A DNA stretch of 29,058 nucleotides from assembly GCF_003334315.1 (NCBI RefSeq), contig NZ_QOWR01000058.1; one strand, written 5' to 3'. Origin of the DNA: Escherichia coli (GTDB lineage: Bacteria > Pseudomonadota > Gammaproteobacteria > Enterobacterales > Enterobacteriaceae). Of the stretch, positions 22,207 through 22,320 are shown in pieces. The position numbers and the translations under genes were made by a program. The notes below the pieces were generated by a model. That model was not told the origin of the DNA, ran no database searches, and saw nothing but the letters and a program-made list of their open reading frames with translations. The stretch's first letter is position 1. Each line of letters starts with the position of its first letter.

Positions 22207-22320
22207 ATGTGGTATTTCGCATGGATTCTGGGAACGCTTCTTGCCTGTTCGTTTGGGGTAATCACCGCGCTGGCGCTTGAACACGTCGAATCAGGCAAAG
22301 CCGGTCAAGAAGACATCTGA
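22207..22320 (+). CDS. cydX: Cytochrome bd-I small subunit CydX (YbgT), 37 aa
   Basis: Below the ORF-track size threshold. ATG 14 nt after the cydB stop, preceded by SD AAGGAG; encodes MWYFAWILGTLLACSFGVITALALEHVESGKAGQEDI (single transmembrane helix); stop overlaps the ybgE start (TGATG). Confidence 0.85.
   Translation: MWYFAWILGTLLACSFGVITALALEHVESGKAGQEDI

Follow-up and report, generated by a model that had tools for sequence, protein, structure and literature searches.

Does the short gap between cydB and ybgE in a 29,058-nucleotide stretch of Escherichia coli DNA (the window) encode a protein that was passed over by a list of open reading frames (ORFs) with a threshold of 60 amino acids? 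The original prediction was that it does, and that the protein is CydX, an accessory subunit of cytochrome bd-I. The best explanation of the locus as a whole is that positions 22207-22320 are cydX, the third gene of the cydABX-ybgE operon, and we regard this assignment as practically certain. The gene, formerly named ybgT, is absent from the ORF list as a result of the length threshold, and the absence has no biological meaning.

The predicted reading frame of 37 codons with a strong Shine-Dalgarno (SD) sequence is present between cydB and ybgE. The frame starts with the ATG at 22207 and, according to the ORF listing and translation of the plus strand, continues for 37 codons to the TGA stop at 22318-22320, giving the product MWYFAWILGTLLACSFGVITALALEHVESGKAGQEDI. 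The cydB stop codon (TAA, 22190-22192) is separated from the cydX ATG by a spacer of 14 nt, gtaaggagctaaaa. As read in the window, the spacer including the SD sequence is gtAAGGAGctaaaa. Both the ATG at 22207 and the AAGGAG in front of it are thus where they had been expected (Table 1). The duplex of this site with the 3' end of 16S rRNA has a predicted energy of -8.4 kcal/mol, which is matched by only 1.2% of the 913 ATG codons on both strands of the window, with a mean of -2.4. The 29-kb window contains three copies of the pattern AAGGAG-N4-9-ATG, compared to 0.97 expected, and the other copy on the plus strand is the start of cydA. The GC3 values by frame, calculated from only the 111 nt of cydX, are 0.54, 0.61, and 0.44.

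Table 1 Features of the cydX locus, with positions counted from the first nucleotide of the window
Feature	Position	Strand	Evidence
cydA, cytochrome bd-I subunit I, 522 aa in RefSeq	19469-21037	+	NF011677, 1179 bits vs cut-off 968, aligned from residue 2
cydB, cytochrome bd-I subunit II	21053-22192	+	NF011579, 867.9 bits vs cut-off 718
Shine-Dalgarno sequence of cydX, AAGGAG	22195-22200	+	6-nt gap to ATG; direct reading and pattern scan
cydX, cytochrome bd-I subunit X	22207-22320	+	ORF, PDB identity, TIGR02106, PF08173, RefSeq annotation
Hydrophobic transmembrane helix, codons 2-24, WYFAWILGTLLACSFGVITALAL	22210-22278	+	Kyte-Doolittle hydropathy
Acidic hydrophilic C-terminal tail, codons 25-37, EHVESGKAGQEDI, net charge -3	22279-22317	+	composition
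TGATG, cydX stop overlapping ybgE start by one base	22318-22322	+	sequence; RefSeq CDS ends
ybgE, last gene of the operon, 97-aa membrane protein	22320-22613	+	NF007881, 185.2 bits vs cut-off 116
G+C-rich hairpin with T-runs flanking on both strands, terminator-like	22635-22658	.	consensus scan; function inferred

Translation of the frame and a search for CydX/YbgT returned CydX, and the predicted identity of the peptide was confirmed by structures, family models, and annotation. In the PDB sequence search, all 37 residues are identical to those of chain X of entry 6RKO, "Cytochrome bd-I ubiquinol oxidase subunit X" (E = 8.9e-22). The same chain X sequence is present in nine PDB entries, including 6RKO, 6RX4, and 9RZV, and it is by this identity that the peptide is assigned as a subunit of purified cytochrome bd-I. 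The NCBIfam equivalog model TIGR02106, "cytochrome bd-I oxidase subunit CydX", is matched over 29 of its 30 profile positions with 70.7 bits, compared to the cut-off of 31.6 (E = 9.1e-20). The only Pfam family matched by the peptide is PF08173 (YbgT_YccB), with 53.8 bits (E = 1.9e-14), so that the peptide belongs to the CydX family by curated thresholds. The position of the gene is also that of cydX: it lies directly 3' of cydB on the same strand of a cydAB operon, at a distance of 14 nt, and both upstream genes pass the bd-I equivalog models. In RefSeq, the annotated cydX coding sequences of strain E2865 and of MG1655 (b4515) correspond to this ORF and have one base in common with ybgE. Position 22207 of the window corresponds to 774196 in MG1655.

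According to its hydropathy profile, the peptide has a single transmembrane helix and, after it, an acidic tail, which fits the claim of a single-helix membrane peptide. The Kyte-Doolittle means over 19 residues are 1.6-2.05 for residues 1-25 and approximately zero in the tail. CydX proteins have approximately 30-40 residues and begin with a hydrophobic helix that is directly followed by acidic residues, and the window peptide of 37 residues shares this layout. The most conserved residues of CydX are Y3, W6, and G9, of which W6 is invariant among the known homologues, whereas the C-terminal region is variable except for conserved acidic residues adjoining the helix (PMC6005532). The window peptide starts M-W-Y-F-A-W-I-L-G and contains all three conserved residues. 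Met1 and Trp2 have been located at the dimer interface and Thr10 at the ubiquinone site (PMC13189123). Since the peptide is identical to K-12 CydX, all residues with published roles are present.

The genes upstream and downstream of cydX are those of the bd-I operon (Table 1). The ORF of cydA opens with ATGATG after AAGGAGTC (19458-19471). The mechanical ORF start is at 19466, one codon before the second ATG (19469), which is the start in RefSeq and in the NCBIfam alignment. The second ATG is positioned 5 nt from the SD sequence, compared to 2 nt for the first. Upstream of cydA, the regulatory region differs from that of MG1655 by single bases at two positions, 19156 and 19191, and the operon itself is identical. 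The consensus scan of 21053-22207, from cydB to cydX, identified no promoter-like site on the plus strand, so cydX is probably transcribed together with cydA and cydB. A single cydABX-ybgE transcript has been described (PMC6005532), and it fits both the promoter scan and the terminator-like hairpin after ybgE. Co-transcription is thus suggested by the sequence together with the published transcript.

The predicted TGATG junction between cydX and ybgE is present, and the stop codon of the former shares its last base with the start codon of the latter. The SD duplex of ybgE has an energy of -2.4 kcal/mol, which equals the background mean, compared to -8.4 for cydX, -6.9 for cydB, and -8.0 kcal/mol for cydA. 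Translational coupling of the two genes is plausible, given the overlap and the weakness of the ybgE SD. Ribosomes that finish at the cydX TGA would probably begin again at the ATG of ybgE that overlaps it, and the output of ybgE, a gene without a good SD of its own, would be tied to the translation of cydX. Insertion of a kanamycin cassette between cydX and ybgE does not cause a bd-I-deficient phenotype (PMC6005532), and any coupling is therefore not needed for oxidase activity in those assays. It is conceivable, but rather unlikely, that ybgE is translated only by ribosomes that have just completed cydX, in which case the ratio of CydX to YbgE would be fixed and YbgE would be a candidate for a partner that joins CydX and bd-I transiently during assembly. 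The bd-I subunits that have been described are CydA, CydB, CydX, and CydH, and YbgE is not among them (PMC8951039, PMC13189123). The annotation of ybgE in MG1655 is only "PF09600 family protein".

The same junction raises the question of whether the peptide matters at all. The overlap and the weak ybgE SD could also mean that cydX is translated mainly as an upstream frame that delivers ribosomes to ybgE, with a dispensable peptide, and alanine scanning indeed identified no single CydX residue as essential (PMC6005532). The absence of an essential residue indicates that the mechanism is redundant at the level of residues, not sharply defined. However, deletion of cydX results in bd-I-deficient phenotypes, which are slow growth, mixed colonies, sensitivity to reductants, and lower oxidase activity (PMC6005532). 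The ten N-terminal residues are essential, with redundancy among W2, Y3, W6, and G9, and function declines when N-terminal residues are replaced in blocks or in threes (PMC6005532). Separation of cydX from ybgE by the cassette leaves bd-I unaffected in phenotype, and CydX is a resolved subunit of the complex (PDB; PMC8951039, PMC13189123). For CydX homologues, the peptide alone has been reported to complement a cydX deletion when supplied in trans (PMC4325964). A mere leader role for cydX is thus very unlikely, and the claim that CydX is needed for bd-I activity agrees with the literature on the identical K-12 gene (PMC6005532, PMC8951039).

Even less probable is that the frame is an untranslated product of chance in the spacer between cydB and ybgE, with an AAGGAG that is coincidental or serves another start. 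Short ORFs are common: 72 with 20 or more amino acids overlap the 4.5 kb around cydX (19000-23500), and ORF length alone is therefore no evidence for cydX beyond chance. Furthermore, a GTG two bases downstream, at 22209 in the +2 frame, has the same SD. However, nine deposited structures of bd-I resolve a subunit with exactly the sequence of the cydX peptide, the peptide exceeds the TIGR02106 cut-off more than two-fold, and it matches Pfam, whereas the overlapping ORFs at 22149-22298 (minus strand), 22201-22284 (minus), 22209-22280 (plus), and 22262-22360 (minus) match no NCBIfam family with E up to 1. These alternatives, two antisense ORFs in cydX, one antisense ORF across the cydX-ybgE junction, and the +2 frame with its GTG start, were rejected; the two antisense ORFs within cydX also have poor SDs. 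What raises the cydX ORF above chance is its SD, combined with a sequence equal to that of a solved subunit and with the scores of the family models.

The least probable reading, to which we give almost no weight, is that the peptide is AppX/CbdX (formerly YccB), the bd-II paralogue of CydX: its 23 N-terminal residues resemble AppX (PDB 7OSE chain C, E = 0.015) and the CbdX model NF011333 is weakly matched, but the score of 21.7 bits is far under the cut-off of 57 whereas that for the CydX model exceeds its threshold, both upstream genes score above the bd-I equivalog cut-offs and below those of bd-II (770.6 bits vs 1025 for cydA and 513.7 vs 681 for cydB, NF011602) so that no bd-II appC/appB precedes the peptide, and the locus adjoins ybgE and tol-pal, as K-12 cydX does.

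With the peptide identified as CydX, its function can be drawn from the literature on the same sequence in K-12, as can its translation, insertion into the membrane, and complex formation. The single helix of CydX binds to CydA by numerous hydrophobic contacts with transmembrane helices 1, 4, 5, 6, and 7, and is positioned near heme b558 and to the side of the quinol site (PMC8951039). The subunit has been called crucial for bd-I to assemble, remain stable, and be active (PMC8951039). A cryo-EM study from 2026 found that bd-I also occurs as a more active dimer (PMC13189123). The symmetric interface of the dimer is formed by CydX-CydX contacts, involving the Met1-Trp2 motif and a leucine zipper, and by phosphatidylglycerol, and a co-purified ubiquinone is located between Ser233 of CydA and Thr10 of CydX (PMC13189123). 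By extension, cydX in the window would be translated from its own strong SD, and the product would enter the inner membrane as a single helix (residues approximately 2-24) with an acidic tail, as published structures and genetics have established for the same sequence. The helix would pack onto transmembrane helices 1, 5, and 6 of CydA, and according to some accounts also 4 and 7, beside heme b558 and the Q-loop. It would be required for the stable assembly of the heme sites and for oxidase activity. Contacts between two CydX subunits would build the dimer interface, and with Thr10 CydX would help to hold a ubiquinone at the interface of CydA and CydX.

Of the 5426 complete E. coli genomes, every one has a match to an 801-nt query over the cydX locus (21900-22700), and the features cydB, cydX, and ybgE are annotated under all the matches listed. 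The 151 nt around cydX are at least 99% identical in 5368 of the 5426 genomes, and the lowest identity among the matches listed is 98.7%, which corresponds to at most about two mismatches. Two of the 5436 places that match 21900-22700 are on plasmid-typed records, and a few genomes have two copies.

The window is a segment of the E. coli chromosome with the gene order ybgD'-gltA-ybgV/ybgU-sdhCDAB-sucABCD-sdhX-mngR-mngAB-cydABX-ybgE-ybgC-tolQRA-tolB-pal-cpoB-lysT-valT-lysW-valZ. It is 99.8-99.9% identical to MG1655, and is not MG1655 itself. Bases 1-204 form one end of an IS1 copy, which abuts a truncated ybgD fimbrial gene, and collinearity with MG1655 begins at 205. The IS1-ybgD junction (204/205) has no contiguous match among the top-ranked matches listed from 5426 complete E. 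coli genomes, and the best matches consist of two pieces over approximately 1.3 kb. The spacer between sucB and sucC (10767-10940) is approximately 90 nt longer than in MG1655, apparently by one extra REP-type unit. In this spacer, the Rfam family naRNA4 (RF02564) is reported at the gathering threshold for two segments, 10774-10845 and 10865-10936. The copy between sdhB and sucA, on the minus strand at 6332-6402, is stronger. The small RNA SdhX is annotated in MG1655 in the 3' UTR of sucD, corresponding to approximately 13061-13161 of the window, and SdhX was not reported by any Rfam family at gathering thresholds. The Rfam CpoB/ybgF intercistronic thermometer (142 bits) extends across the pal-cpoB junction at 27500-27638. 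At the end of the window (28565-29057), ARAGORN identified tRNA-Lys, Val, Lys, and Val, with an Rfam RtT element after lysT (28572-28740). The spacers between the tRNAs differ from those of MG1655 at several positions.

Two other short genes of the window, both annotated in MG1655, are on the minus strand. The gene ybgU (2594-2701) is in the divergent region between gltA and sdhC and encodes 35 amino acids, MRKSYEVGISPKINLCNSVEVLTNSFGTVISGRQV; no NCBIfam model matched YbgU. The gene ybgV (2578-2610) has a GTG start, encodes 10 amino acids, and overlaps ybgU. The example of cydX demonstrates that an ORF threshold of 60 amino acids conceals real, functionally required genes, and ybgU and ybgV are also under the threshold. 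A strong SD in a short gap 3' of a known gene, combined with an overlap of stop and start codons, is a workable cue for finding such genes by eye. Biologically, the locus offers nothing new, as cydX has been annotated, characterized, and resolved in structures of bd-I from 6RKO and 6RX4 onward.

In other bacteria, small ORFs that follow cydB encode CydY and CydZ (DUF2474, PF10617); each has an SD and one helix that begins with a conserved Trp (PMC4325964). However, they belong to other families and are found in operons without cydX (PMC4325964), whereas the window peptide matches PF08173 only. The fourth subunit of E. coli bd-I, CydH/CydY (YnhF), is also small and has a single helix, which sits between helices 1 and 9 of CydA and obstructs a route of oxygen toward heme b595, a role unlike that of CydX (PMC8951039). 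Its gene, ynhF, is located outside the cyd operon and the window. CydS of the bd oxidase from Geobacillus thermodenitrificans (5DOQ) resembles CydX as a single-helix subunit of approximately 4 kDa alongside CydA (PMC8951039). Its relationship to CydX is disputed: the two are homologous according to PMC8951039, whereas PMC13189123 denies homology for such subunits, which it describes as similar, but with a profoundly divergent sequence and without dimerization being predicted. The window peptide had no match to CydS (5DOQ) in the PDB sequence search. A closer relative is AppX/CbdX (YccB; 7OSE chain C, 7OY2 chain X) of bd-II, which shares the Pfam family YbgT_YccB and a similar N-terminus (MWY..W..G.LL.CS) with CydX and binds to AppC nearly as CydX binds to CydA (PMC8951039). 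However, it is a paralogue from the app operon, and the window peptide falls under its equivalog cut-off. The counterpart of the window peptide is K-12 CydX (YbgT, b4515; 6RKO/6RX4 chain X), to which it is identical in 37 of 37 residues within the same gene order, cydA-cydB-cydX-ybgE. There are no nucleotide differences from K-12 MG1655 in 19192-27944, a range that includes the whole cyd operon, compared to approximately 30 differences elsewhere in the window, besides the IS1 end and the additional REP-like unit between sucB and sucC. Judged by its identical protein and DNA, the cydX of the window is the already known type example of CydX.
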